Shown here: in pieces, positions 2 to 11,899 of the stretch | How the letters are laid out: each line of letters starts with the position of its first letter | Numbering within the stretch: the stretch's first letter is position 1 | Assembly: GCA_029858305.1 (NCBI GenBank) | Contig: JAOUFI010000071.1 | Span: 1 to 11,899 of the forward strand | Reading direction: 5' to 3' | DNA length: 11,899 nt | Source of the DNA: Candidatus Thorarchaeota archaeon | GTDB lineage: Archaea; Asgardarchaeota; Thorarchaeia; Thorarchaeales; Thorarchaeaceae | The notes under the pieces: model-generated | Seen by the model: the letters and a program-made list of their open reading frames with translations, nothing else | What the model was told of the DNA's origin: nothing | Databases searched by the model: none | Position numbers and translations under genes: made by a program

Positions 2-1069
2 CCTCATCAGATGCATTTTCACCCAACCAATCTTGGTAGGCCAGGGAATGTTCACACGACAATGCAACAGCTCGATGCAATCAAGAGTGTCAAACCATCA
101 GGTAAGAAGAAGGAAGTCGTTCATCTGACACATATGGCATTTGATTGTCTTGGAGTAGTTGAAGAGGGAATGGCAAATTGGAAGGATGTTGCGTCTGGCG
201 GATTGATATTTGCAGATTACTATAACAAGAACAAACACTTCACAACTGATCTAGGACAAATCACCTTTGGACAATCAATGACAATGACCGGAGACGGACC
301 GTTTCAGCACTCCCTCTACCTGTTGACTGGCGGAAAAGCAAAATGGTCAAACATCCCAGTTGATGTTGAACTTCCTGGCGGAGCAGGTATTGTACCCTTC
401 ACTTTTGAACCAAAGAGCCCCGCAAACGCGGTTCAGTGGGTCGGATCGCTTGAGTTTGCACTCAGCATAAAGGACCTTTGGAGAATGTTCTTGAGCACAG
501 ACCACCCGAATGGTGGGCCATTTCTGAAATATCCATTATTGATATCGTGGTTGATGAGTAAAAAACAGAGAGATAACTGGTTGGAGATGGTTCACAAGTT
601 TGCCATTGAACGTTCAACCATTGCCAACATAGAAAGAGAGTATTCACTCAACGATATTGCTATTACAACACGAGCGGCACCTGCAAAAATACTCGGTATG
701 GAAAAGACGAAAGGGCATCTTGGTGTTGGTGCTGATGCAGATGTTGCTGTATATGGATTCAATCCTGAAAAAACAGATTTGGCAAAGAATCCCGACTTGA
801 TTCTCAAACACTTCGCCCAGGCGCAGTTCACCTTTAAAGGTGGAGTACAGGTTTCGAAGAATGGGGTTGTTGCCAAGCAGATACACTCAAGAGTGCATAC
901 AACACACCCTAAGCTCAATGAAGCTCTAAGTACAAGAATTGATAGAGAACTTGAAGAAATGATGAGTAAATGGTTCTCGCATTCCTTCAGTAACTATCCT
1001 GTTCCAGCAAGGTACCGAGAGCATCTTGAGATTCCAAGAGTGATCGATTCAACATCAGTACAGGCTTAG
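2..1069 (+). CDS. fwdA: Formylmethanofuran dehydrogenase subunit A (amidohydrolase), 5'-truncated by the window edge
   Basis: Frame is open from base 2 (P-H-Q-M-H-F-H...). FwdA motifs: PHxxHxHxxNLGxPGN, HLTH, DLGQITFG, TMTGDGP, LSTDHPNGGPF, TRAAPAKILG..KGHLGVGADADVAVY. The ATG at 11 is internal. Confidence 0.95.
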   Translation, partial: PHQMHFHPTNLGRPGNVHTTMQQLDAIKSVKPSGKKKEVVHLTHMAFDCLGVVEEGMANWKDVASGGLIFADYYNKNKHFTTDLGQITFGQSMTMTGDGPFQHSLYLLTGGKAKWSNIPVDVELPGGAGIVPFTFEPKSPANAVQWVGSLEFALSIKDLWRMFLSTDHPNGGPFLKYPLLISWLMSKKQRDNWLEMVHKFAIERSTIANIEREYSLNDIAITTRAAPAKILGMEKTKGHLGVGADADVAVYGFNPEKTDLAKNPDLILKHFAQAQFTFKGGVQVSKNGVVAKQIHSRVHTTHPKLNEALSTRIDRELEEMMSKWFSHSFSNYPVPARYREHLEIPRVIDSTSVQA

Positions 1070-1084
1070 CGTGGATAGTCAATA

Positions 1085-1816
1085 ATGTCATTGTTGGGAA
1101 CTTTCACTGGAAGCCGCTCCATAACTTTCACAGCAATCTTTGCGGCTATGATTGCAATCCTAGACTCGATACCAATGATACCAGGATTCTATGGAGGTGT
1201 TTGGGATTCATGGGGTTTCATGCTAAGCCCAATTGTTGGCATATTATTGGGACCTGTTCTTGGAGTAGTTTCAGTCGGGTTAGGAGGTCTCGTCGGGCAT
1301 CTTGTATATTTCAGAGATCCAATTGAATTGTTATTCATGCTGGGAGCACCTGTTGGAGCCGGGGCTGCAGGACTTGTTTTCCAAGAGAGATGGAAGGCTG
1401 CTTGTGTAATATACTCAGCGATGATAATTGGTTATTTCTTGACACCTGTTACATGGTCATTGTCTCTGTTGGGTGTGTGGGACGTTTTGACTGGATTTGC
1501 ACTCATATTTATGATAACTATTGTGACAAGCCTCAACAAAGTCGGAACTAGAATTCTATCTTCTACAAATCTAAAAATGATTTTAGCCACGGTGATAGGT
1601 CTCGAATCGGATATATTAGCAAGAATATTCATCCTTATTCCAGGGCAGATGTATTGGTTCTATTATGCAATGCCTTTGGAAATACTTCAGGGTCTCTGGT
1701 TGGTAGCTGGAGTTATCACACCTATCAAAGTCATGCTAGCAGCGGTTGCAACGATAGCAATTGGTAAGTCACTACTGGACATCTTTCCACAACAATCAAC
1801 AGAATTCGGAAATTAG
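1085..1816 (+). CDS. Integral membrane protein, ECF transporter S-component-like
   Basis: 243 aa with about 6-7 hydrophobic segments. N-terminal AxxxA helix (TAIFAAMIA) and the PIVGILLGPxxGxxxxxxGGxxG pattern typical of S components. Starts 15 bp after the fwdA stop. Confidence 0.7.
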   Translation: MSLLGTFTGSRSITFTAIFAAMIAILDSIPMIPGFYGGVWDSWGFMLSPIVGILLGPVLGVVSVGLGGLVGHLVYFRDPIELLFMLGAPVGAGAAGLVFQERWKAACVIYSAMIIGYFLTPVTWSLSLLGVWDVLTGFALIFMITIVTSLNKVGTRILSSTNLKMILATVIGLESDILARIFILIPGQMYWFYYAMPLEILQGLWLVAGVITPIKVMLAAVATIAIGKSLLDIFPQQSTEFGN

Positions 1817-1837
1817 TTGGTATGCATTATGCTTTAT

Positions 1838-1874
1838 AAAAAATAAGTGAAAGAGAGGCTTATTGCCTCCCTCT
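1838..1874 (-). terminator. Hairpin plus U-tract terminator of the Gfo/Idh/MocA gene
   Basis: Minus strand reads AGAGGGAGGC-AATAA-GCCTCTCTTT (10 bp stem, 2 G:U pairs) then CACTTATTTTTT, starting 8 nt after the stop, in a convergent intergenic gap. Confidence 0.6.
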
Positions 1875-1882
1875 AGTAGATA

Positions 1883-2941
1883 CTACATAGGATCTGAAAC
1901 GATCTTGTTAGCCCACTTCTGTGCAGCTACAGCAGCTTCAAAGCCATATTCAGGTTTCTCATTACCCAGACAAGCCTGAACAAAATGAGCAATCATCTGC
2001 TTATGGCCCCATACTTCTGGACCTGGTCCAGGTACCTGCCAATTCTGGTCATCACCGTTCTTGCCAAATAGGGTCACATCAAAGACTTCTCGATTCTTAC
2101 TGGGAATCCAATCAACAAGAATGGTCTTGCCATTGTTTCCAAAGATCTCGAATCGACTCAAATCTAGACCTTTTGCAACAGATGAACCAAGCATCATTGT
2201 TCCAACTACACCGTTTCCGAATTTCACTATTCCCACAGTCTGGTATCCTTTGAAATCTTTGATTCCTTCTATTGGACTATAGTTTGGAGTCCACTTAGCA
2301 TTCGTGATGGGACTGCCAAAGAACCACTGAAGCATATCAAGGCTCCAGACGGATAATGTGTAGTCGGGATAGCCACCTGCTTTTTCAATATCCCAAGCCC
2401 AACCACTTAATGGCCACTGATCTGCAAGATCTTCACCAGCAATAAACTCTCTAAATGTGATTGCCATTGGTTTTCCTATCGCTCCAGAATCAACAAGTTC
2501 CTTTGCTTTCAAATAGCCAGGACAGTGCCTGAAGTTTAGGATAGGCATTAGGACCACACCCTTCTTCTTGGCTATTGCTCCAAGCTCTTCAGCATCTTTG
2601 AGCTTTGGTGCTATTGGCATTTCCAAGTAAACATGCTTTCCAGCCTCAAGTGCTTGTTTGCCCAGAGGATAGTGGAATGGTGTAGGTACTGCAACGCACA
2701 CAGCATCGACTTCAGGATCTTTGCAAACATCACCCCAATCATAGTAGATTTTGAGATCGAAGTTGTCTTTGGTCGCCATTTTTTCCTTTAGTTTCAGAGC
2801 ATACGCTTCGCTTTCCCTACCCTTCCTGGCCAGAAGACCATAGAGTTGAGAGTTGGGAACCTTACGGAAAGATGGAACGTGAGCTGCGCCGCCAACAAAT
2901 CCTACTCCAGCACAGACCGTCTTCAAAACTTTTTTAGTCAT
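1883..2941 (-). CDS. Gfo/Idh/MocA family NAD(P)-dependent oxidoreductase with atypical active site
   Basis: GVGFVG Rossmann motif, DAVxVAVPTPFH, ALEAGKHVYLE(M)P, NFR, GAIGKP, WxWDxxKAGG. GAGGCGAGG RBS-like sequence upstream. Confidence 0.92.
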   Translation of the reverse strand: MTKKVLKTVCAGVGFVGGAAHVPSFRKVPNSQLYGLLARKGRESEAYALKLKEKMATKDNFDLKIYYDWGDVCKDPEVDAVCVAVPTPFHYPLGKQALEAGKHVYLEMPIAPKLKDAEELGAIAKKKGVVLMPILNFRHCPGYLKAKELVDSGAIGKPMAITFREFIAGEDLADQWPLSGWAWDIEKAGGYPDYTLSVWSLDMLQWFFGSPITNAKWTPNYSPIEGIKDFKGYQTVGIVKFGNGVVGTMMLGSSVAKGLDLSRFEIFGNNGKTILVDWIPSKNREVFDVTLFGKNGDDQNWQVPGPGPEVWGHKQMIAHFVQACLGNEKPEYGFEAAVAAQKWANKIVSDPM

Positions 2942-3104
2942 TTTGTTCCTCGCCTCTATTAATTTCCATGTTCAGCAGAATGATGTGCCTGAAGTATGAC
3001 TTAAAGACACATAGCTCTGGTGAATTCTATCCTTTTTTCTTAACAACATTTGCCTTAAAAGCACTAGGATGAATTTTGAATGTCATTTAGCTTCAGGTTT
3101 CGAT

Positions 3105-3141
3105 TTGAAACAAACAATCAATGGAAATGTGTATTTTCCAT
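3105..3141 (-). terminator. Possible terminator of the DUF166-DUF3786 unit
   Basis: Inverted repeat ATGGAAA (3121-3127) / TTTCCAT (3135-3141) 4 nt past the stop, followed on the minus strand by T-rich TGATTGTTTGTTTC. Confidence 0.35.
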
Positions 3142-3145
3142 CCTA

Positions 3146-3790
3146 TTAGATAGCCTTCATAACTCTCGAGGCAAGGAACCAGCTGATATCTCCTAATTGT
3201 TCGTGAGGTAGATAGAATATTGAGTTTCTGTCATAGAGAAGTCTTACACTTGCAGAAAACTCCTCATCTGCATCTTCGAAAACAAGTAGAATTTTAATCA
3301 TTGGCAGAAACGAAATTTCAAAGCCGGCATCGCCACGATCAACTTTCTGGGCGCCAAGTCGTTCAAGTGCGCCAAAGAGATTTTCCTTCTTCTCCGTATA
3401 CACAGAAGTAAGACTACCTAATTTCTCCTCGCTGAATGAGTATCTGCATGCCCATGACCCCCTTAGCGTATTGAACTTGACCCATTCGTGTGCAATACCT
3501 TTGTCGAGTGCTCTGCTATAGTAGTAGAGATGCGGTATGATTTGACTGGTGTTCGATTTCTTACCTGTTAGAGTATCTTGAGTTTCGCCAGTTTCGAGGT
3601 TGACTTGCAGTCCCAAGATGGTAACATACTTGTCACCAACACCAAATCGATTTCGGAGTGTGCGGATGTCATTGCCAAAGTTCTCCCAACTCCACATTGC
3701 TGAGCTAGTGTCGAATTGCTCTACATGGAATCTTGCTGCGAGTTCTCGAGAGATACTTGACCAGTACTCAAAAATGTCATCGGGCATCAT
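3146..3790 (-). CDS. DUF3786 family protein
   Basis: Motifs WVKFxxLxG, GDAGFEISFLP.I.I.LVFEDADEEFSASVRLLYD, L..E. Start reassigned from 3853 to ATG 3790 (or 3787), which removes the overlap with the upstream gene. Confidence 0.8.
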   Translation of the reverse strand: MMPDDIFEYWSSISRELAARFHVEQFDTSSAMWSWENFGNDIRTLRNRFGVGDKYVTILGLQVNLETGETQDTLTGKKSNTSQIIPHLYYYSRALDKGIAHEWVKFNTLRGSWACRYSFSEEKLGSLTSVYTEKKENLFGALERLGAQKVDRGDAGFEISFLPMIKILLVFEDADEEFSASVRLLYDRNSIFYLPHEQLGDISWFLASRVMKAI

Positions 3791-3821
3791 ACATCTCTCT
3801 GACGAGATACATTGCTGCCTT

Positions 3822-4604
3822 TCAATTTTTCTCAACGATTGAACGACAGTCATCGATGCCTACTGCTTCACATACAGCATATCTCGCATTGTAACCAGCA
3901 ACATGAAGAAGAGCGTCTCCCACTTCTCTGTCTTTTGCCATTGATGCAGTGCATGGATAGGAATGGTGTGCTTTTGCTATAGTGTCAAATAGCTCATCAG
4001 TGTTCTTGATAGACTTACCACGCACCTTTTGACTGACATACCATGAACATCCGCAGGGTGCAGAACGTAAAGGACCAATCTCTGAGATGATATCATCCTT
4101 CATGTCTGCATAGTGGATAGGACGTCCTATCCGATACTTTTTCATGAATTCGTCGATGAGCGCTCCAGAGCCTGGTTCCAATGTACAGAAGGGTTTGGGG
4201 AATGCAGATTCAATGCCCATGTTGTCTAAGGTTTCCTTCACTTGTGCTCTCAAACCAGGCGGAACCCAAGTCGGATCTTCTATGGGAACAATAACAGCCT
4301 TTGCACTTGTGGATTCTATCAAAAGGTCAACAGAGGCTAAAAGATCATGATGTATTGCGACAATAAGAAGGAGGTCACATTCAGTGAGATTCAGACCATC
4401 GATGTAGTTCTTTGGTTCTTCAATCATTGTAGGAGAAGGCGGGTCTACAGGATAGATGCCAACGATGTCACCAACGTGTGATCCATATGCAGATCTACAT
4501 TCAGAACATGTCGGTTCGCAACCTTCGCAGAATGTTTTGAAGTTGATGAGATTACCAATGACTCGCTCGGCAAATACGTCCCCATAGACTGTTCCGATTC
4601 TCAA
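3822..4604 (-). CDS. DUF166 family protein with a Cys-rich insert
   Basis: ERxIxNL, IHHDL, PKPFCTL, LRSAPCGxSWYV, HHSYPCTASMxxD, LHxAG. Likely TTG start at 4604 because the GTG at 4613 lies inside an AGGTGAT RBS. Confidence 0.8.
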   Translation of the reverse strand: MRIGTVYGDVFAERVIGNLINFKTFCEGCEPTCSECRSAYGSHVGDIVGIYPVDPPSPTMIEEPKNYIDGLNLTECDLLLIVAIHHDLLASVDLLIESTSAKAVIVPIEDPTWVPPGLRAQVKETLDNMGIESAFPKPFCTLEPGSGALIDEFMKKYRIGRPIHYADMKDDIISEIGPLRSAPCGCSWYVSQKVRGKSIKNTDELFDTIAKAHHSYPCTASMAKDREVGDALLHVAGYNARYAVCEAVGIDDCRSIVEKN

Positions 4605-4758
4605 AAATATCACCTATAGAATATTGTGAGGTTTCTGTTAGGCTAAAAAAGGATGATGATTGCGGCTCAGTGTACAAATTTGCGACATCAGAAACATAAT
4701 ATGCCGCACCTATCATGCTGATTCTCTCAGGAAGATCAAATTCAGGAGACCTAATGAT

Positions 4759-5154
4759 ATGGCATTGGGAGATTTCCTATTCCCTCAAGTGGAGCTTCAA
4801 TTAGTTATTGTCAGATCGTTCAAAACTGATATTGAGTCAGCAAGAGGTATACCCTCAGAGAAGTATTCTACCGAAACAGCATCAGTACGTCTTAACAATA
4901 ACGACATGCGAAGGTTGAGCCTAAAGGAGGGAAGTGCTATCAGTTTGAAGTCTGATAGCGGAACAGTAATTGTTAGAGCTGAAATCGATGATAAAGTTCC
5001 TGAAGGAAGTGCAGTCATGCCACACGGTCCATGGGCACTTGCTCTAGTTGCAGTTCCAGCCAATAATTCACCGCCTGCATTTAGTGGAATTGCAATCATT
5101 GCTACACGAAGTAAAGAAGATATCACTTCTCTCGAGACTTTGTTTGGTCCTTGA
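4759..5154 (+). CDS. fwdD: FwdD-like protein (molybdopterin dinucleotide-binding fold), degenerate
   Basis: 131 aa from ATG 4759 with AGGAG at 4744-4748. Pattern LNxxDMxRLxLxEGxxIxLxSxxGxVxVxA...PEGxxxMPxGPWA...PxFxG matches FwdD. Confidence 0.82.
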   Translation: MALGDFLFPQVELQLVIVRSFKTDIESARGIPSEKYSTETASVRLNNNDMRRLSLKEGSAISLKSDSGTVIVRAEIDDKVPEGSAVMPHGPWALALVAVPANNSPPAFSGIAIIATRSKEDITSLETLFGP

Positions 5155-6472
5155 GTTTCCCGATGATCTTATCGACACGGCCTCGTTCAAGTTGAAGGTT
5201 GAGATGGGGATCCTCATCAAGCATAGTTCTGAGATTCTTTGCGACTGCCATTGCTCTGGCACGGTCACCATCAATAGATTTCCAAGCACTGTGTTCTCTA
5301 ACCTTTCCAGGTTTAATCTCTTCAGCCTTAAGTATAATATTCCTCTCAAAGAATCCACTGGGCGGATGCTCTTTTCCAACTACCTCATCAAAGAACAACA
5401 TTCGGCCACGTTCCCATTCACGGGCTTCTTCGAGTTTTTCGACATTATATCCCTCTCGCTCTACTTCGAGAACATCATACGGACAAGAATTGGCACAAGC
5501 ACCACAGTAGACACAATGGTCAAGTACAGCAATCTTATCCGATTTTCCTGTTGGATATATTGCCTTTACTGCGCATATATTGAAGCAATTGTGGCAACCA
5601 ATAGGATCACACTTATCGAGTTTTATAATATTAACAGCTCCAGAGAAAGGCTTTGAAACCTCAATTGCATCATAGGGACACACCTCGCCGCAGAGTCCGC
5701 ATTTAACACAAGCAAGATCGTTTTGTTTGAGCTTTCCTGTAATCTTTGGCTCTTTGATAATCCGGGCGCTTGCTTCTGTACATTTGACTTCTATGGCTTC
5801 GTCCGGACATATCTTCTCGCAGAGCTTGCAGTAGTCACATTCCTTTTCATTTAGTCTGATTGCTGTTGCAGGCTTGAATTCGGGAGGCTCTGCAGAATCC
5901 GACCAGTATATCCTAATTACTTCAGGACAAAGCAATTCGCAGAGACCGCAGTATGAACATTTGTCTTCATCCACCTTAATGCTGCCCTCTGCATGGACCT
6001 CTTTCATATAGGTGACTAGGTCTTTCTTTTTCTCAACGTCCACCTGAACCTCAAGAGCGCCAGTCGGACACACTTTAGCACAAAGAAGGCAAGGAGCACA
6101 TTTATCGTAATCAATCTCATGCGTTCCTGATACACGGTTGAAATGATTTACAGCCCCATCGCCTTCATACTTAGTAGTGAAAGCCCTGAAAATACAAGCT
6201 GAATCACATAGTCCACAAAAGGTGCAAATTTCAGGATCAATATTGATGAGTGGAGCTCCTTCAATTCTACCTGCAGCAGCTTCAGGAACAGGTCCAATCG
6301 TTATGGCATCCCAAGGACAGTAAAGACAAAGACTGCAACCGACACATTTGTCAATTGAGTAATCAAGGACTTTAGTAAGAAGGGAAGTTTTCCAAACAAA
6401 TTTGAGGGTACCATCGATAAGTTCCATCGTGATGGTTGGTTTTTCCCCAACTGTGATTCCTGTCTTACTCAT
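5123..6472 (-). CDS. fwdF: Polyferredoxin with 8 [4Fe-4S] motifs, FwdF/FmdF-like
   Basis: Eight ferredoxin motifs (CVGCSLC, CTFCGLC, CAPCLLC, CSYCGLC, CDYCKLC, CVKCGLC, CDPIGCHNC, CVYCGAC), a KPFxG linker and fwd gene context. ATGA overlap with the hdrA stop and a GGAGG RBS. Confidence 0.85.
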   Translation of the reverse strand: MSKTGITVGEKPTITMELIDGTLKFVWKTSLLTKVLDYSIDKCVGCSLCLYCPWDAITIGPVPEAAAGRIEGAPLINIDPEICTFCGLCDSACIFRAFTTKYEGDGAVNHFNRVSGTHEIDYDKCAPCLLCAKVCPTGALEVQVDVEKKKDLVTYMKEVHAEGSIKVDEDKCSYCGLCELLCPEVIRIYWSDSAEPPEFKPATAIRLNEKECDYCKLCEKICPDEAIEVKCTEASARIIKEPKITGKLKQNDLACVKCGLCGEVCPYDAIEVSKPFSGAVNIIKLDKCDPIGCHNCFNICAVKAIYPTGKSDKIAVLDHCVYCGACANSCPYDVLEVEREGYNVEKLEEAREWERGRMLFFDEVVGKEHPPSGFFERNIILKAEEIKPGKVREHSAWKSIDGDRARAMAVAKNLRTMLDEDPHLNLQLERGRVDKIIGKLKDQTKSREK

Positions 6473-8910
6473 TTGGATCCTCCCTTCTTCTTTGGTGACA
6501 TCTTTGCCTTGCTTTGAGTTTTCACACTCGTCTCGCTTCCAAGTGGACCAAGAGATATTATGTTACTAGTGAACTCAGTTACCTGTTTTGCATATTGACC
6601 GGCTTCAGATGCGGATACGCTGCCGAAATATAGACGCCTCCCATCAAAACCAGCCGCCTCTAATACTGTCCTTAGATTATCTGTTCTTTCCTGCGCATGT
6701 AGTGCTCCTGAACGATAATGACAGTCTTGAACATGACAACCAATTACTGCAACTCCATCAGCACCTTCTTCGAATGCAGTCAGTAAAATATCAGTATCAA
6801 GACGACCAGTGCAAGGCACTTGAATGGGTACTATATTTGAAGGATAGGTTAAGCGTGTCATTCCAGCCCTATCCGCTGCGGAATATGCGCACCATCTACA
6901 CAAATATCCGACAATTAATGGTTTGGAGCCACTGAACCGAACTGCACTCCTTGTGGCTGCCAATAACTGTTCGGTGGTTAAGCTGGGTAGATTAAGAGCA
7001 GCAGTAGGACAAGCTGCAACACATGCGCCGCAACCTCGACATGCGGCTTGGTTAATAGTAGGTTTATCTCCATTGTTAGAACGTATTGCATTTGGAGAAC
7101 AGACCTGTTGGCACTGAAGACAGTTGATGCATAGGTCGTGGTCAATTGTTGGGACAGTCAGATCTGTCAGAATCGTACTACTTGTTAGAAGAGTTTTCAC
7201 CTTTGAAGCTGCCAATCCTGCATGTGCAACCGTATCAGAGATATCTTTTGGAGCCTGCGATACTCCTGCAAGAAAAATCCCTTTAGAGGCAGTACCACTC
7301 AAGTTTAGTTTAGGGTGTTGTTCTAGGAAGAATCCATTCTCATCCAACGGTATTTTTAGCAATTTTGAAAGATGTTGGTTGCTCGGTGCTGGGTCCATAC
7401 CTACCATCAAGACAACAAGATCAACATCCAGGTATAGCATTCTCTTAAGAAGGGTGTCTTCTGCTCTTACAAAGGTCTTACCTTTTACTGAATCATGAAC
7501 TACCTCACCCACAGCGCCTCTCACAAAATGGATACCATACTCATCAGCAGCTCGAACACTCAGTTCTTCATGGCCCTTACCAACTGTTCGAAGATCGGTG
7601 TAGAAGACATAGGTTTCACAATCCGGATGAAGCTCTTTTACTTGGATAGATTGCTTTACAGCCTCTGCGCAGCATGCCCTACTGCAATATGGGCGATTGA
7701 ATCGCATTGTCCGACTTCCAACACAGTTAATGAACACTACACTACGTGGAGCGCTGCCATCAGAGGGTCTTATGAGCCTACCACCTGTAGGACCTGAAGG
7801 ATTGATCAGCCGTTCAAGTTCGAGGGATGTGATGACATCAGGATTTTCACCATATCCAAGTTCTTCCACAATTGAAGGGTCGAATGGACGAAATCCCGTG
7901 GCGACTATGATTGCGCCTACCTCGATGGTTTCGGTTTTAGTGCAATCATCGTACCGAATTGCTTTTGCCTCACATACTCCACTGCATGACTGACAACCAA
8001 CACAATTATCCATGTCGATATGTGGAGCTATTGGCACAGCGTCAAGTGAGTGTCTTACGATTGCCTTTCTCTTACCTAAACCATGGTTATATTCATCTAC
8101 AACTTCAACAGGACAAACTTCAACACACCTATTGCAGCCAGTACACAGCTCTGTGGACACGTATCTTGGGTGCTGCGTCAGTTTCACAGAATATCTTCCT
8201 GTGCTGCCCTTGATTTCTTCAATATCAGTGAGTGTCATCAATCGGATGTTCGAATGATCAGCTGCTCTCGCCATCATCGGACCCAAGATGCAGATGCTAC
8301 AATCGAAGGTTGGAAAGAGCTTATCCCATCTTGCCATATGACCCCCCAGAAACGCTTCTTTCTCAACAAGCACTGTTTCAATTCCTTGGTCAGCTAGCTC
8401 AAGAGCTGCAGTTACACCTGCCACACCTCCTCCGATTACCATAGCTCTTTGAACTACAGGCATCTCAAAAGTCCTGATTGGATTTGAAAGTCCAACTTCT
8501 GCTAAGCCGATGTCAATTATAGTGGCTGCTTTTGAGGTCGCTGCCTCACGGTCGTCACTATGTACCCAACTGCATTGTTCACGAATATTTGCCACGTGAA
8601 GATGTCCAGGATCAATCCCTGCCGCACGGACAGCATCATTGAAGAGCTCTTTATGGAGAAGTGGTGTACAACCAGCAATGACGACTTTCTCGGCTCCACT
8701 CTTCTTGATTGCCAAGGTCAGCTCTTGAACACCATGATCAGAGCATAAGTGGTCGTTGACTTCAACTACTGCCACTCCCCGTGACTCCACTCGCTCTTTG
8801 AGATCTTCGATATCTATTGGCCCAGCAATATTCGAGCCACACTTACAGAGGAAAACAGCAACTCTATTCTTCTCGTTTTTGTCTGAGTTGGATTGTGAGT
8901 TGCGCTTCAA
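6469..8910 (-). CDS. hdrA: Heterodisulfide reductase subunit A fused to a C-terminal MvhD domain
   Basis: CxCGxNI..CS..AGCTP..NIREQCSWVH, VIGGGVAG, DKxFPTxDCSICI, inserted 2x[4Fe-4S], LELERL, CVGSR..YCSRxCC, PKDI, C-terminal 2x[4Fe-4S], then MvhD motifs CRWCAYxAAD, PCTGR, GCHxxDCHY. Start uncertain: TTG 8910 (AGGAG 13 nt upstream) preferred, ATG 9006 is an alternative. Confidence 0.95.
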   Translation of the reverse strand: MKRNSQSNSDKNEKNRVAVFLCKCGSNIAGPIDIEDLKERVESRGVAVVEVNDHLCSDHGVQELTLAIKKSGAEKVVIAGCTPLLHKELFNDAVRAAGIDPGHLHVANIREQCSWVHSDDREAATSKAATIIDIGLAEVGLSNPIRTFEMPVVQRAMVIGGGVAGVTAALELADQGIETVLVEKEAFLGGHMARWDKLFPTFDCSICILGPMMARAADHSNIRLMTLTDIEEIKGSTGRYSVKLTQHPRYVSTELCTGCNRCVEVCPVEVVDEYNHGLGKRKAIVRHSLDAVPIAPHIDMDNCVGCQSCSGVCEAKAIRYDDCTKTETIEVGAIIVATGFRPFDPSIVEELGYGENPDVITSLELERLINPSGPTGGRLIRPSDGSAPRSVVFINCVGSRTMRFNRPYCSRACCAEAVKQSIQVKELHPDCETYVFYTDLRTVGKGHEELSVRAADEYGIHFVRGAVGEVVHDSVKGKTFVRAEDTLLKRMLYLDVDLVVLMVGMDPAPSNQHLSKLLKIPLDENGFFLEQHPKLNLSGTASKGIFLAGVSQAPKDISDTVAHAGLAASKVKTLLTSSTILTDLTVPTIDHDLCINCLQCQQVCSPNAIRSNNGDKPTINQAACRGCGACVAACPTAALNLPSLTTEQLLAATRSAVRFSGSKPLIVGYLCRWCAYSAADRAGMTRLTYPSNIVPIQVPCTGRLDTDILLTAFEEGADGVAVIGCHVQDCHYRSGALHAQERTDNLRTVLEAAGFDGRRLYFGSVSASEAGQYAKQVTEFTSNIISLGPLGSETSVKTQSKAKMSPKKKGGSK

Positions 8911-9085
8911 GGGATTCGTGTAGCTCCTATGTGTATTGTGATTATTCTCGTGTTGCCAAATATTCAATAATCCTATCTTAAATAACTCCTTGAAAGTCCA
9001 TACCATAACGGATAATTGTTGTGGAGTGTGCACAGAAAGAATCTGAACAACGATATAGAGGAAGAAATCACGGAGTTCCTTAACA
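8911..9085. promoter_or_regulatory. Divergent promoter region between hdrA-fwdF and fwdG-fwdB-cooC
   Basis: Head-to-head genes with an AT-rich gap. TATA-like CTTAAATAA (TTATTTAAG on the minus strand) at about 8977-8985. Confidence 0.45.
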
Positions 9086-9544
9086 TTGAAACTTAATCCC
9101 ATGGAACTGTACAATCTACTACCGAAAACGAACTGCAGGCAATGCGCCCCTAAAACATGTATGGCCTTTGCTACCAAGCTTGCTCTTGGGGATGTGAACG
9201 CTGATGATTGCCCTCCATTATTGGAACCAGGGTTCGAGAAAAACCTGAAAACAATAAGAGAGCTAACAGCACCTCTTCTGTCGACTGCTGAAACAGGCGT
9301 GAAACTAGATGAGGAAAAATGCACAGGATGCGGTAACTGTGTAGTTGCATGTCCAGTGGATGTAGCGGTTGAACCACCAACAGGCATAGGGAAAGCTGCG
9401 AGAGGAGATGTTACAGTCTTTAGAATTGATAATGGAGTGGCGAAGATTATCAATTTAGAGAAATGTAGACGCTTTCCACCCGACCGCTTGAACTGTAGAG
9501 TGTGTGAGCAGTACTGCTGCACAGATGCAATTGAGATATGGTAG
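9086..9544 (+). CDS. fwdG: FwdG-like ferredoxin with an N-terminal RnfB/AcsC-type FeS domain
   Basis: N-terminal LPxTNCxxCxxxTCMAFA...CP domain, then CTGCGNCVVACP and C-x9-CRVCEQYC..DAI. Directly upstream of fwdB. TTG start with GGAG at 9072-9075. Confidence 0.8.
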   Translation: MKLNPMELYNLLPKTNCRQCAPKTCMAFATKLALGDVNADDCPPLLEPGFEKNLKTIRELTAPLLSTAETGVKLDEEKCTGCGNCVVACPVDVAVEPPTGIGKAARGDVTVFRIDNGVAKIINLEKCRRFPPDRLNCRVCEQYCCTDAIEIW

Positions 9545-9553
9545 GTGTAGCGC

Positions 9554-10843
9554 ATGGATGATATCGTATGTAATAGATGCTCTTTGCTCTGTGATGATGT
9601 GCTTGCACAGATTAGGGATATGGAAACTAAGTCTTTGGGTCTCTGTCGACTCGGTCATACTCATCTTGAGAGAGTAGCACATTTTTCAAAGATTGACGCC
9701 ATATCCAGAAAGAATGGTGTGGAGAATGGTCTGAACCTCGACGAAGCTTTAACGATGGCAGCAGAAACACTCATCTCAGCTAAACATCCTCTACTCTATG
9801 GATGGTCTCGGTGTACAAATGAAACGATTAGTGAGGGACTCTCCCTAGCTAAAACATTGAAGGCGGTCTTTGACTCAAGTGCAAGTATGGGTCTTAGTCA
9901 GTCTATGAGTCATAATATCCATAATATGAAACTAGAGACTGATCTTGAAGCGGTTCAAAATAATGGTGAATTCATCATTTACTGGGGTAGCAATCCGGTC
10001 GAAAGCAGTCATAGACATGCGAGCCGATTCACAGTTTTTCCTCGAGGCGAGAACGTGCCACAAGGTGTTGAGAGTAGGATTACTGGTGTCGTTGACGTAA
10101 GAGAAACTGAAACAATGAAAATGGGAAATCATCGCATTATCATTCCTCAAGGTGGAGATAGCGAGCTAGCAAGAGCTCTGATTGATGACCTCACGGGAAA
10201 AACACCCCTTAAGACACCCATTCTGGGCCTACCAGCTGCAACATTGGTGGGCATATCCCAAGCCCTGAGAAAGTCAGATTTCACCGTCATTTTCTATGGA
10301 AGTGGCATAATCAATTCAGGCAAGACCGCGGAGAACCTTTCTCTTCTCGCTGAGCTCATCCAAACACTGCGAGATTTAGGAAAGAATGCATACGCAATGC
10401 CCATGTGGCATGAACCAAGTGATATGAGCGTGATAAAATCATCAAAAAAACTAACATCCACTCATCTAGCCATTGACTTCTCGTCGGGAAAACCCACTCA
10501 GTTGAGTGCTAAAACCACCTTTCAGAGATTGACAGCAAAAGAATTTGATGTGGTGCTAGTTGTAGGAACTGATGCCTTTGCAGTACTACCAGGTCAAGCA
10601 GCAAGAGGTCTGACTAGTTCAAACATTATCTACATCGGTTCAGGAGGGAGTCTTATGGACCAATGGGCTCAGCTTTCACTGAGAGTCGCTGACGATATCA
10701 TGTCAGCATCGGGATCTATGACCAGGATTGACATGAAAGATATTCAGCTCAAATCTTGGAGCGGATCTAAAATGGCATCCCAAAACGTATTTGATGTAAT
10801 TACACGACTTCATCGATTGATAGAGGCAAGACTCAAGGATTGA
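9554..10843 (+). CDS. fwdB: FwdB-like protein lacking the W/Mo-ligating residues
   Basis: CxxCxxLCDD..CRLG cluster motif, PLLYGWS, IIYWGxNP...RHxSRF..FPRG, VVDVRxTxT, DFSSGxP. Length of 429 aa is typical for FwdB. AGGTG RBS at 9543-9547. Confidence 0.92.
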   Translation: MDDIVCNRCSLLCDDVLAQIRDMETKSLGLCRLGHTHLERVAHFSKIDAISRKNGVENGLNLDEALTMAAETLISAKHPLLYGWSRCTNETISEGLSLAKTLKAVFDSSASMGLSQSMSHNIHNMKLETDLEAVQNNGEFIIYWGSNPVESSHRHASRFTVFPRGENVPQGVESRITGVVDVRETETMKMGNHRIIIPQGGDSELARALIDDLTGKTPLKTPILGLPAATLVGISQALRKSDFTVIFYGSGIINSGKTAENLSLLAELIQTLRDLGKNAYAMPMWHEPSDMSVIKSSKKLTSTHLAIDFSSGKPTQLSAKTTFQRLTAKEFDVVLVVGTDAFAVLPGQAARGLTSSNIIYIGSGGSLMDQWAQLSLRVADDIMSASGSMTRIDMKDIQLKSWSGSKMASQNVFDVITRLHRLIEARLKD

Positions 10844-10865
10844 CAATTCAGGTGATTGGTGATAG

Positions 10866-11663
10866 ATGAAGATTGCAGTTGCTGGAAAAGGTGGCGTCGG
10901 CAAGACGACAGTTGCTGGAACATTAGCGAGATTATTAGGACGAGATGGGCTCAAGATACTTGCAGTTGATGCCGATCCAAGCTATACGTTGTGGACAGCT
11001 CTAGGAATCCCAGCAGATATTGCAAAGAAGATAGTACCACTTACACAGAATGAGACCCTCGTGAAAGAAAGATTGAAGATCGAGGGAGCAGAATCCTACA
11101 GTGGATTCTTCAAGTTAAATCCGCGCGTTGATGATTTGTCTTCTAAGTTCGCAGTCCAAGGTCCGGATAACGTGAGTCTTCTAGTTGCAGGGACTGTCGA
11201 TACAGGAGGATCTGGTTGTATGTGTCCTTCAGCAACTCTTCTCAAGAGCCTTATGCGTCATCTTGTACTCGGAACTGACGAGGCTTTTGTAATGGATATG
11301 GATGCTGGAATAGAGAACTTAGGTCGTGGCACAACACGTGGAATTGATGCCTTATTGGTTGTCACAGAACCTGGTCGTAGATCCCTTGAAATTTTGACAA
11401 AGATACGAACACTAGCAGGGGATATTGACGTTGGGCGTATTTTTGCTGTGGGAAATAAAGTAACTAGTTCAGCGGATGCTCAGATGATAAAAGAATGGGT
11501 TGAAAGAGAAGGTCTTTCACTTCTAGGGAGCATTCCCCTAGATGATGTGATAAAAGAAGCAGACAGAAGAGGTGTTGCTCCACTTGATCTTGACTCCAAC
11601 TCTACTGGCATGCGTGCTATTGCAGAGATTAAAGAGCGATTGGTTAAACAAATCAATCGCTAA
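10866..11663 (+). CDS. cooC: CooC/AcsF-type MinD-family ATPase (nickel insertion chaperone family)
   Basis: GKGGVGKTT deviant Walker A, VDADP, LNPxVDD, GSGCMCP metal-binding CxC, DMxAGIExLGRGT, NKV. AGGTGAT RBS at 10850-10856. Confidence 0.88.
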   Translation: MKIAVAGKGGVGKTTVAGTLARLLGRDGLKILAVDADPSYTLWTALGIPADIAKKIVPLTQNETLVKERLKIEGAESYSGFFKLNPRVDDLSSKFAVQGPDNVSLLVAGTVDTGGSGCMCPSATLLKSLMRHLVLGTDEAFVMDMDAGIENLGRGTTRGIDALLVVTEPGRRSLEILTKIRTLAGDIDVGRIFAVGNKVTSSADAQMIKEWVEREGLSLLGSIPLDDVIKEADRRGVAPLDLDSNSTGMRAIAEIKERLVKQINR

Positions 11664-11847
11664 CCATTATTTTGATATTATTTCACTTTGAAATATTAAA
11701 AGAGATATGATTAAGTTTCTTAACCAATGCAGCACTATTCAGTTAACGATTGAAAACGGTTATTTTTTGAGTGGAGTTTGACTGGTTCACAACCTTATTT
11801 AGGTGCAATGTTAAGCGGAAAATAATACGTTCAGGAACTGTGCAACC

Positions 11848-11899
11848 ATGAAGAAGAAAGCGTACTTCAAGGCGGATGAAGCCAAGACAGGGCTTGGCG
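11848..11899 (+). CDS. Start of an unidentified CDS running off the window (MKKKAYFKADEAKTGLG...)
   Basis: ATG after an AT-rich intergenic region with a TATA-like CCTTATTTAG and AGGA upstream. Frame is open to the edge, but only 17 codons are visible. Confidence 0.4.
   Translation, partial: MKKKAYFKADEAKTGLG

Follow-up and report, generated by a model that had tools for sequence, protein, structure and literature searches.

We analyzed a stretch of 11,899 nucleotides (nt), hereafter the window, from the genome of a Thorarchaeial archaeon, which carries a set of genes related to the formylmethanofuran dehydrogenase Fwd and to the Hdr proteins, directly beside genes of the CO dehydrogenase/acetyl-CoA synthase (CODH/ACS). 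The window comprises contig C82 in full; the metagenome-assembled genome to which it belongs measures 3.04 Mb and is 88.9% complete, and the public names of near-identical and related proteins point to the Thorarchaeota of the Asgard lineage. Its first 153 nt match the last 153 nt of contig C116 at 98.7% (2 mismatches), and its last 160 nt (positions 11740-11899) match the end of contig C108 at 99.4% (1 mismatch). Both junctions are present on single contigs in relatives, from fwdDBA through the fwdB-like gene described below in a locus of the same genus (L059) and from cooC over cdhABCDE to a second cooC gene (cooC2) in locus L051; strain variation within fwdA and where cdhA begins is the probable cause of the two breaks in the assembly. 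In this Thorarchaeial genome, a Wood-Ljungdahl gene island of approximately 32 kb extends to both sides of the window, which forms its middle part.

The gene map was obtained from an open reading frame (ORF) listing and from Pfam and NCBIfam scans. The genes are distributed over both strands and belong to at least four transcription units; a search of sequencing runs with positions 4600-11899 listed none from RNA. In the part that concerns us here, hdrA::mvhD and the gene of a polyferredoxin face the genes fwdG*-fwdB*-cooC, and the layout further comprises the convergent fwdD* as well as the genes of a DUF166 and a DUF3786 protein. We write G*, B* and D* for the FwdG-, FwdB- and FwdD-like proteins of this set and F for the polyferredoxin. 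The core features are the following:

4759-5154, forward strand: fwdD*, 131 amino acids (aa) without Cys; Molydop_binding 48.8 bits; 32-nt convergent overlap with the polyferredoxin gene
5123-6472, reverse strand: FwdF-like polyferredoxin, 449 aa; NF042909 212 bits, cut-off 375
6469 to about 8910, reverse strand: hdrA::mvhD fusion, putatively of the HdrA2 type; NF040770 887 bits, FlpD 144 bits
8911-9085, no strand: divergent intergenic region between hdrA::mvhD and fwdG*, read from the sequence
9086-9544, forward strand: fwdG*, 152 aa with 13 Cys; ends 9 nt before fwdB*
9554-10843, forward strand: fwdB*, 429 aa, with a MopB/FwdB fold; TIGR03129 260.5 bits, cut-off 327.8
10866-11663, forward strand: cooC-like P-loop ATPase; Pfam CbiA 68.5 bits, GKGGVGKT and C118-x-C120

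An initial annotation of this DNA had named FwdA, B-, D-, F- and G-like proteins and HdrA-MvhD, all of which are recovered by ORF and profile scans, and had listed hdrBC, mvhAG, fdhAB and fwdC as missing, none of which Pfam and NCBIfam scans find in the window. As laid out below, we regard F, G*, B*, D* and HdrA::MvhD as a module in its own right, which is old and conserved and is paralogous to the electron-input arm found in Hdr-Fwd supercomplexes of methanogens.

B*, D* and the electron-carrying proteins

In FwdB, we take Cys118 (Cys or Sec) to be the W/Mo ligand and His119 and Arg288 to be catalytic, in the numbering of M. wolfeii. Alignment of B* to the M. wolfeii protein (PDB chain 5t5i_B) places G113, L114 and W285 at these three sites, and the N-terminal [4Fe-4S] motif CxxCxxxC...C is intact (C6, C9, C13 and C31). 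The description of B as degenerate in the initial annotation is borne out by 20 Thorarchaeial orthologues: none of them keeps the Cys, His or Arg, which are replaced by G, A or S at the first site, by nine different residues at the second and by W, F, Y, A or S at the third, and all 20 keep the visible cluster cysteines, one row being cut at the locus edge. B* stays below the cut-off of TIGR03129 (260.5 versus 327.8 bits) and has no Pfam match, PF00384 included. Since Cys, His and Arg are gone, B* is, by its sequence, no longer able to reduce CO2. Public records annotate B*-type genes as 'formylmethanofuran dehydrogenase subunit B'.

The AlphaFold 2 model of B* (pLDDT 82) adopts the fold of MopB domains I-III and matches the FwdB chains 8rja_B, 5t5m_B and 7bkb_H with a TMq of 0.85-0.86. 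FhcB and NuoG reach 0.67-0.69 and 0.66-0.70, respectively, and FhcB gives no sequence match to B* at E ≤ 0.001. Among 76 columns conserved to at least 90% in ten Cys-His-Arg FwdBs, 30 are kept in Thorarchaeial B*, including the Cys motif, WGxxP, D181, FxGxG and R391/D393 and, among the kept positions, nucleotide-binding glycine motifs; a segment with seven of the canonical-invariant residues is deleted in 65% of these proteins. The former cofactor cleft carries a set of invariant residues specific to B* (E150, S151, H153, E173, S174, N192 and H193). They lie in residues 149-194 (window 9998-10135), which are the least confident part of the model (pLDDT 48-64) and a candidate new binding surface or ligand site. 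Because 30 of the 76 positions are kept and the cleft has invariant residues of its own, B* may still bind a cofactor or another ligand, and the label 'metallopterin-free' of the initial annotation goes too far, the loss of the cofactor being unproven.

These features bear on the alternative that B*D*, like arsenite oxidase, still holds a pterin or another cofactor that is not ligated by the protein, and carries out a different redox reaction, for example as a high-potential acceptor site in place of HdrBC. The kept nucleotide-binding motifs and the new invariant residues lining the cleft would fit such a role, as would the lack of hdrBC in the module and the retention of D*, which is predicted to cap B*. 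Some relatives in the same Arg-less clade (see below) have retained the Cys, which is adjoined by H, Q, R or K, and a precedent is given by AioA, which binds its cofactor without an amino-acid ligand according to an excerpt of PMC10100899. We nevertheless consider this alternative unlikely, since the three former active-site positions vary freely among close relatives, 65% of the Thorarchaeial B* proteins have the deletion of seven canonical-invariant residues, and the dN/dS values are 3-5 times those of the neighbouring genes.

D* reaches 53.7 bits with the NCBIfam FwdD model (cut-off 175) and retains the Molydop_binding fold, that is, the pterin-capping domain. Its N-terminal motif MALGDFLFP is conserved and is absent from the canonical FwdD of the same genome. 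The claim of a degenerate D is therefore correct in that D* is diverged and fast-evolving, but not in that its fold is kept and that it had no catalytic residue to lose. Complex prediction for B*-D* gave an ipSAE of 0.95 compared to 0.29 for the best control, a mark that is reached by 58 of 80 solved complexes and by 2 of 110 mismatched pairs; at least 97% of contacts are shared between the runs, and the partner pLDDT is at least 88. Since FwdB-FwdD is a solved pair, the predicted B*-D* complex may show only the likeness to this pair. Several distant relatives of B* (P0134, P0145, P0160, P0175, P0195 and others) are FwdD-FwdB fusions of 570-640 aa with an N-terminal Molydop_binding domain, a hint that D and B may act as one unit in this family.

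HdrA::MvhD matches the HdrA2 model NF040770 over its full length (model positions 1-777) with 887 bits, below the cut-off of 1100. Solved HdrA chains match residues 1-645 of the fusion, and MvhD occupies residues 648-775. The listed ORF of 1028 aa (6469-9555) over-extends hdrA by about 215 codons, as the HdrA2 model matches its residues 231-1008 only, and the likeliest start of hdrA::mvhD is a TTG at 8910. The gene fwdG* lies antisense inside the over-extended ORF and is thus hidden in ORF lists. The polyferredoxin possesses eight four-Cys motifs and has FwdF (5t5i_F, 145 bits) as its best PDB match. Its residues 355-449 (window 5123-5407) form a Cys-free, charged C-terminal extension of about 95 aa, which has no counterpart in the solved FwdF chains and could be a docking arm. 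G* is composed of an N-terminal PF04060 domain, which matches the [4Fe-4S] domain of the large subunits of corrinoid iron-sulfur proteins (CFeSP) and of RnfB, and of a C-terminal half that is a FwdG-like 2x[4Fe-4S] domain.

Elsewhere, the genome contains 40 CCG-domain matches in about 20 ORFs, 8 MvhD domains and 3 NiFe hydrogenase loci. FrhB/FdhB and mcrA were not found in the genome (88.9% complete), which does not show their absence. The genome is thus rich in Hdr parts, which are spread over several contigs (C9, C44, C185, C117, C55 and others), and four of the 8 MvhD domains lie within HdrA-sized ORFs; the HdrA::MvhD of the window is the only one of the four fusions without a CCG-domain match on its own contig.

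Conservation of the module and co-inheritance with CODH/ACS genes

In all 19 loci from relatives, G*-B* faces hdrA::mvhD. The polyferredoxin gene comes next in 18 of them, D* is present in 17 and cooC follows B* in 18, with every miss located at a contig end. G* is 76-96% identical across the Thorarchaeial loci. We estimated dN/dS from the two genome pairs with unsaturated dS (three of five pairs were saturated and left unused) and obtained 0.151 and 0.136 for B* and 0.114 and 0.075 for D*, compared to 0.024-0.047 for G*, HdrA, polyferredoxin and CooC (0.024-0.026 for G* alone). B* and D* are thus under purifying selection that is 3-5 times looser than that on their neighbours, and a constraint that is looser but still purifying fits a loss of catalysis with a structural or relay role kept.

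As the fastest-evolving genes of the island, with the active site gone, B* and D* might also be regarded as functionless, decaying relics in a working hdrA-polyferredoxin operon. We hold this to be very improbable, because the frames are intact in 42 of 87 genomes, the dN/dS values of 0.08-0.15 are far below 1, and 50 columns are invariant across Thorarchaeia and a second Asgard family, the four cluster cysteines always being kept.

Among the 87 genomes of the class, 42 carry B* orthologues, 44 the polyferredoxin, 45 cdhA and 66 canonical FwdB. B* and polyferredoxin occur together in 39 genomes and are both missing in 40; each of the 8 discordant ones has a completeness of 87% or less. Module and cdhA are jointly present in 43 genomes and jointly absent in 38, with the module alone in 4 and cdhA alone in 2, these co-occurrence counts being drawn from physically linked genes in related genomes that are not independent of one another. 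Canonical FwdB occurs without the module in 21 of the 87 genomes, 20 of which also lack cdhA; in the genus of the window, six species have neither module nor cdhA, and four of these keep canonical FwdB. The module hence tracks CODH/ACS and not canonical Fwd. Co-conservation among relatives, on which the initial annotation had made its proposal depend, is seen for the genes of the module both in the 19 loci and in the 87 class genomes.

The same layout recurs in a second Asgard family, with matches in 18 of 19 genomes and a B* that is 34-38% identical. The module lies beside cdh in three of its four loci, and the three-site pattern of its B* is E-Y-V/I in all five sequences. In these proteins (loci L063-L066), Glu-Tyr replaces Cys-His in 5/5 and 44 of the 76 canonical-invariant positions are kept; they are less decayed than the Thorarchaeial ones and perhaps in a constrained state. 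Further afield, genome G112 carries G-B-hdrA-polyferredoxin, cooC and cdhABC all on one strand with a B of the C-H-A type, and genome G141 is similar, with a C-H-I type B and the module beside cdh. Five such genomes each also encode a canonical FwdB (505-640 bits), and their paralogues score 525, 422, 345, 299 and 288 bits compared to 260 bits for the window. In other lineages, too, the module lies by cdh and canonical fwdB lies elsewhere. On metagenome contigs, the B that shares an operon with hdrA and polyferredoxin is of the C-Q-A type, with G and cdhABC(D) nearby in two of seven loci, the other five being short.

A FastTree phylogeny of 105 rows was built from the 75 best-ranked of 110 representatives (370-480 aa, selected from 150) and 30 locus-derived rows. 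Thorarchaeial B* clusters with that of the second family (SH-like support 98), and the clade formed by the two falls within a group of 43 Arg-less rows (support 94), from which the canonical C-H-R sequences stand apart. C-H-R is kept in 7 of the 110 representatives, a list that is biased since the query was B*. Named members of the Arg-less group belong to Thermoprotei, Geothermarchaeota, Nezhaarchaeales, Methanomethylicota and Bathyarchaeota. The proteins P0289, P0297 and their relatives (Nezhaarchaeales, Nitrososphaerota) show the pattern C-R-A, in which an Arg adjoins the Cys and the usual Arg site is occupied by Ala. These proteins may have shifted their catalytic Arg, which would bear on the published idea of formate oxidation by a second FwdBD that is taken up below.

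The canonical fwd operon and neighbouring genes

The remaining features of the window flank the module on both sides:

2-1069, forward strand: 3' part of fwdA, encoding the C-terminal 355 aa; TIGR03121 364 bits; cut by the contig start
1085-1816, forward strand: membrane protein, 243 aa; weak match to a folate-family energy-coupling factor (ECF) transporter S component, 23 bits versus a cut-off of 60
1883-2941, reverse strand: GFO/IDH/MocA oxidoreductase
3146-3853, reverse strand: DUF3786 protein, a gene of CODH/ACS neighbourhoods; PF12654 82.7 bits; 32-nt overlap with the DUF166 gene
3822-4613, reverse strand: DUF166 protein; PF02593 162 bits
11848-11899, forward strand: first 17 codons of cdhA, the rest being on contig C108, reverse strand

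The adjoining contig C116 ends in fwdC-mch-ftr-fwdD-fwdB-fwdA, the last gene with its N-terminal part. The two fwdA pieces cover positions 2-274 (C116) and 228-552 (window) of TIGR03121, and the window piece, in which HxH and TDHPN are both retained, corresponds to residues 225-567 in alignments with solved FwdA chains. The FwdB encoded on C116 is canonical: it reaches 518 bits with TIGR03129 and 37 bits with PF00384, and its Cys-His-Arg is intact (SVCHGP and PMRGHYN). For fwdA and fwdC one copy each was found in the genome. Since canonical fwdD-fwdB lies directly upstream of fwdA, FwdA is part of an ordinary FwdABCD and a neighbour of the module, not a member of it. The initial annotation had assembled 'Fwd(A,B*,D*,F,G)' into one complex, which has to be given up for FwdA, the remaining genes forming the separate module. 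It had been right, in the second of its two options, to expect a canonical fwdBD elsewhere, possibly just upstream of fwdA: canonical fwdB, fwdD, fwdC, ftr and mch are all found on this flank, and L059 shows the same order.

The position of fwdA also bears on the first option, according to which a cofactor-less B* would be the scaffold for FwdA in an Fhc-like formyl-methanofuran/formate hydrolase. The catalytic residues are missing from B*, as is reported for FhcB in an excerpt of PMC10100899, and the nearest Atlas feature clusters are FwdB-like proteins of Planctomycetota, which we take as a lead only. The option is weakened by the canonical fwdBD adjoining fwdA, and we judge it very unlikely. 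FwdA belongs to an operon with intact FwdB, FwdD and FwdC, with one fwdA and one fwdC found, and in none of the lineages examined does the module include its own fwdA, fwdC or ftr. FhcB, without a sequence match at E ≤ 0.001, is structurally more distant from B* than FwdB (TMq 0.67-0.69 versus 0.85-0.86), and a hydrolase would need neither a 12-cluster wire nor HdrA.

Neither fwdF nor fwdG is part of the canonical operon, and tblastn revealed no second FwdF- or FwdG-like gene in the genome. The module could accordingly be thought of as the electron-input adaptor of canonical FwdABCD, with F, G* and B*D* docking onto, or alternating with, the active FwdBD. All parts of the module find their best solved matches among chains of the Hdr-Fwd supercomplexes, and the canonical operon shares the contig of the module in 2 of 19 relatives (G042 and G007) and lies on the adjoining contig in the genome of the window. 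The distribution of the genes, however, makes this reading rather unlikely. Because 21 of the 87 genomes have canonical FwdB with neither B* nor polyferredoxin, canonical Fwd does not need the module; cdhA is present in 43 of the 47 genomes with the module and absent from 38 of the 40 without it, and in other lineages the module stands by cdh with canonical fwdB elsewhere. Of the second option, paralogues acting alongside a canonical fwdBD, the canonical copy upstream thus stands, but the module is co-inherited with CODH/ACS and not with canonical Fwd.

On its other side, the window continues into contig C108, which carries cdhA-B-C-D-E and cooC2. The cooC-like ATPase of the window has the P-loop GKGGVGKT and C118-x-C120, and cdhA begins 184 nt downstream of its gene; it matches Pfam CbiA (68.5 bits) and no dedicated CooC model. 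DUF3786 is present in 16 of the 19 loci of relatives and DUF166 in 11 (tblastn). In M. maripaludis, autotrophic growth by way of CODH/ACS depends on DUF166 and on a second CooC, as stated in an excerpt of the preprint bioRxiv 10.1101/2024.03.05.583561. We count this requirement and the CFeSP-like domain of G* as further links to CODH/ACS.

The membrane protein at 1085-1816 begins 16 nt past fwdA, and its gene also follows fwdA in L059 and stands at the matching contig end in L043; it may be a candidate for pterin or cofactor uptake. The GFO/IDH/MocA oxidoreductase gene, which like that of the membrane protein we regard as unrelated, sits between the fwd operon and DUF3786 and was found in 7 of the 19 loci of relatives. 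In L051 a mer gene (TIGR03555, 446 bits) lies beside DUF3786 on the opposite strand; in the genome of the window, the closest to mer are LLM-family paralogues with 27-29% identity, and a close mer was not found.

Proposed function and relation to known systems

We propose, with moderate confidence, that the module constitutes a Fwd-derived Fe-S wire leading from HdrA over F and G* to the cluster of B* and serving CODH/ACS, with B*D* as relay and scaffold. The view of B*D* as inactive paralogues acting as scaffold or relay on the HdrA wire, already voiced in the initial annotation, is supported by the loss of residues, the conservation and the dN/dS values. By homology, the flavin of HdrA would split electron pairs, and the low-potential electron would pass eight polyferredoxin clusters and three in G* before it reaches the single [4Fe-4S] cluster of B*, which, capped by D*, would serve as terminal Fe-S relay and docking scaffold. 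As the module lies beside the cdh genes and is inherited with them, CODH/ACS would most likely be the partner, in either direction (CO2/CO, or upkeep of the corrinoid protein). We infer the electron flow, the partner and the loss of the pterin from these observations.

Several points weigh against this proposal. Every part of the module is homologous to a part of Fwd, and its F and G are the only such genes that tblastn found in the genome, which would fit a connection to canonical Fwd as well. Given the 30 retained canonical-invariant positions and the invariant cleft residues of B*, a cofactor or another ligand may be bound, and the retention of the pterin-capping D* points in this direction too. 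The cluster has no hdrBC, although the 40 CCG-domain matches lie elsewhere in the genome. The co-inheritance, counted as it is from linked genes in related genomes, may only mirror one island that was lost or moved together.

Beyond the wire itself, it is conceivable, though doubtful, that the module represents a third kind of electron-bifurcating, CO2-fixing supercomplex in non-methanogenic Wood-Ljungdahl archaea (Asgard, Thermoproteota). HdrA::MvhD would in this case be hard-wired to CODH/ACS through a recycled Fwd arm (F, G* and B*D*), the formerly CO2-reducing subunit being a pure Fe-S docking piece in Thorarchaeia and the CFeSP-like domain of G* passing electrons to CdhA or to the corrinoid protein, where Co(II) would be re-reduced. 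Models of Asgard metabolism and of eukaryogenesis have yet to settle how these archaea obtain the very low-potential electrons for the Wood-Ljungdahl pathway, and a dedicated HdrA wire to CODH/ACS would, if true, provide a concrete and testable answer. B* would then also be an ancient catalytic MopB subunit turned pseudo-enzyme in an electron path, as in complex I and Fhc. Annotation of B*-type genes as FwdB inflates the counts of CO2-reducing Fwd in Asgard genomes.

When compared to characterized systems, the closest are the Hdr-Fwd/Fmd supercomplexes of methanogens (PDB 7BKB, 9SW6 and 9SFI; PMC13580544 and PMC13518236), which provide the best solved matches of HdrA, MvhD, F, G*, B* and D*. 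The module shares with them HdrA with MvhD, an eight-cluster polyferredoxin of the FwdF type and FwdG, and the same wire logic would be expected. Unlike in these supercomplexes, the terminal subunit of the module is without Cys, His and Arg, FwdA and FwdC are not part of it, and its cluster contains no HdrBC, hydrogenase or Fdh; moreover, HdrA and MvhD form a single fusion protein, an additional Fe-S domain of the CFeSP type is present in G*, and the module adjoins CODH/ACS.

A related arrangement was published by Kohtz et al. (Sci Adv 2025, PMC12700198), who describe, for the cultured Methanonezhaarchaeia strain YNP3N, a 'Fwd-Hdr' cluster in which HdrABC is accompanied by a second FwdBD, FwdF and FwdG, and propose that FwdBD oxidizes formate to feed Hdr. 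The cluster resembles ours in that a second FwdBD, FwdF and FwdG lie by Hdr genes, next to a separate FwdABCD, and differs in having HdrABC. FwdB-like proteins of Nezhaarchaeales, not necessarily those of YNP3N, are Arg-less like B* and related to the Arg-less member P0128 but keep the Cys (C-R-A). Formate oxidation may therefore hold for the C-R-A proteins of Nezhaarchaeales; it is not open to Thorarchaeial B*, because the Cys is lost. The initial annotation had called the complex 'undescribed', which does not hold for the general arrangement in view of this cluster but may hold for the Cys-less Thorarchaeial FwdB paralogue, of which we found no description in the literature, where supplements may list such clusters.

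For Methanosarcina acetivorans, Rohlin and Gunsalus (2010, PMC2838876) name fwdG2B2D2 and an hdrA(::mvhD)-polyferredoxin operon. The likeness lies in the full-length match of the window's HdrA to the HdrA2 model, with an adjacent polyferredoxin gene, and in a G-B-D set without A or C, the difference in the two gene sets being unlinked and in the HdrA of the window scoring under the HdrA2 cut-off of 1100. No Methanosarcina is named among the 94 homologues of P0128.

Cofactor-less relatives of the catalytic MopB subunits have been described before. In an excerpt of PMC10100899, FhcB and Nqo3 are listed as cofactor-less MopB lineages, FhcB being a scaffold, and 83 Asgard FwdB homologues are counted, with no dead paralogue mentioned among them in that excerpt. 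FhcB (PDB 6S6Y) is, like B*, derived from FwdB and has a similar fold (TMq 0.67-0.69); it is a scaffold without Mo/W cofactor, which B* may be as well. Fhc, however, comprises A, C and an Ftr-like D and has no electron wire, whereas B* keeps its [4Fe-4S] motif on the HdrA wire. The Fhc arrangement is not found at our locus, as the B* unit is G*-B*-cooC facing hdrA-polyferredoxin, and A, C and ftr stand with an intact B in the canonical operon. The C-terminal MopB domain of NuoG/Nqo3 in complex I (TMq 0.66-0.70) likewise has a fold of the formate-dehydrogenase type that has lost its pterin and stays in the Fe-S path (PMC10100899, same excerpt); it originates from a cytoplasmic Fdh and is fused into a larger subunit, so that we use it as an analogy only for the part that B* would play in the module.

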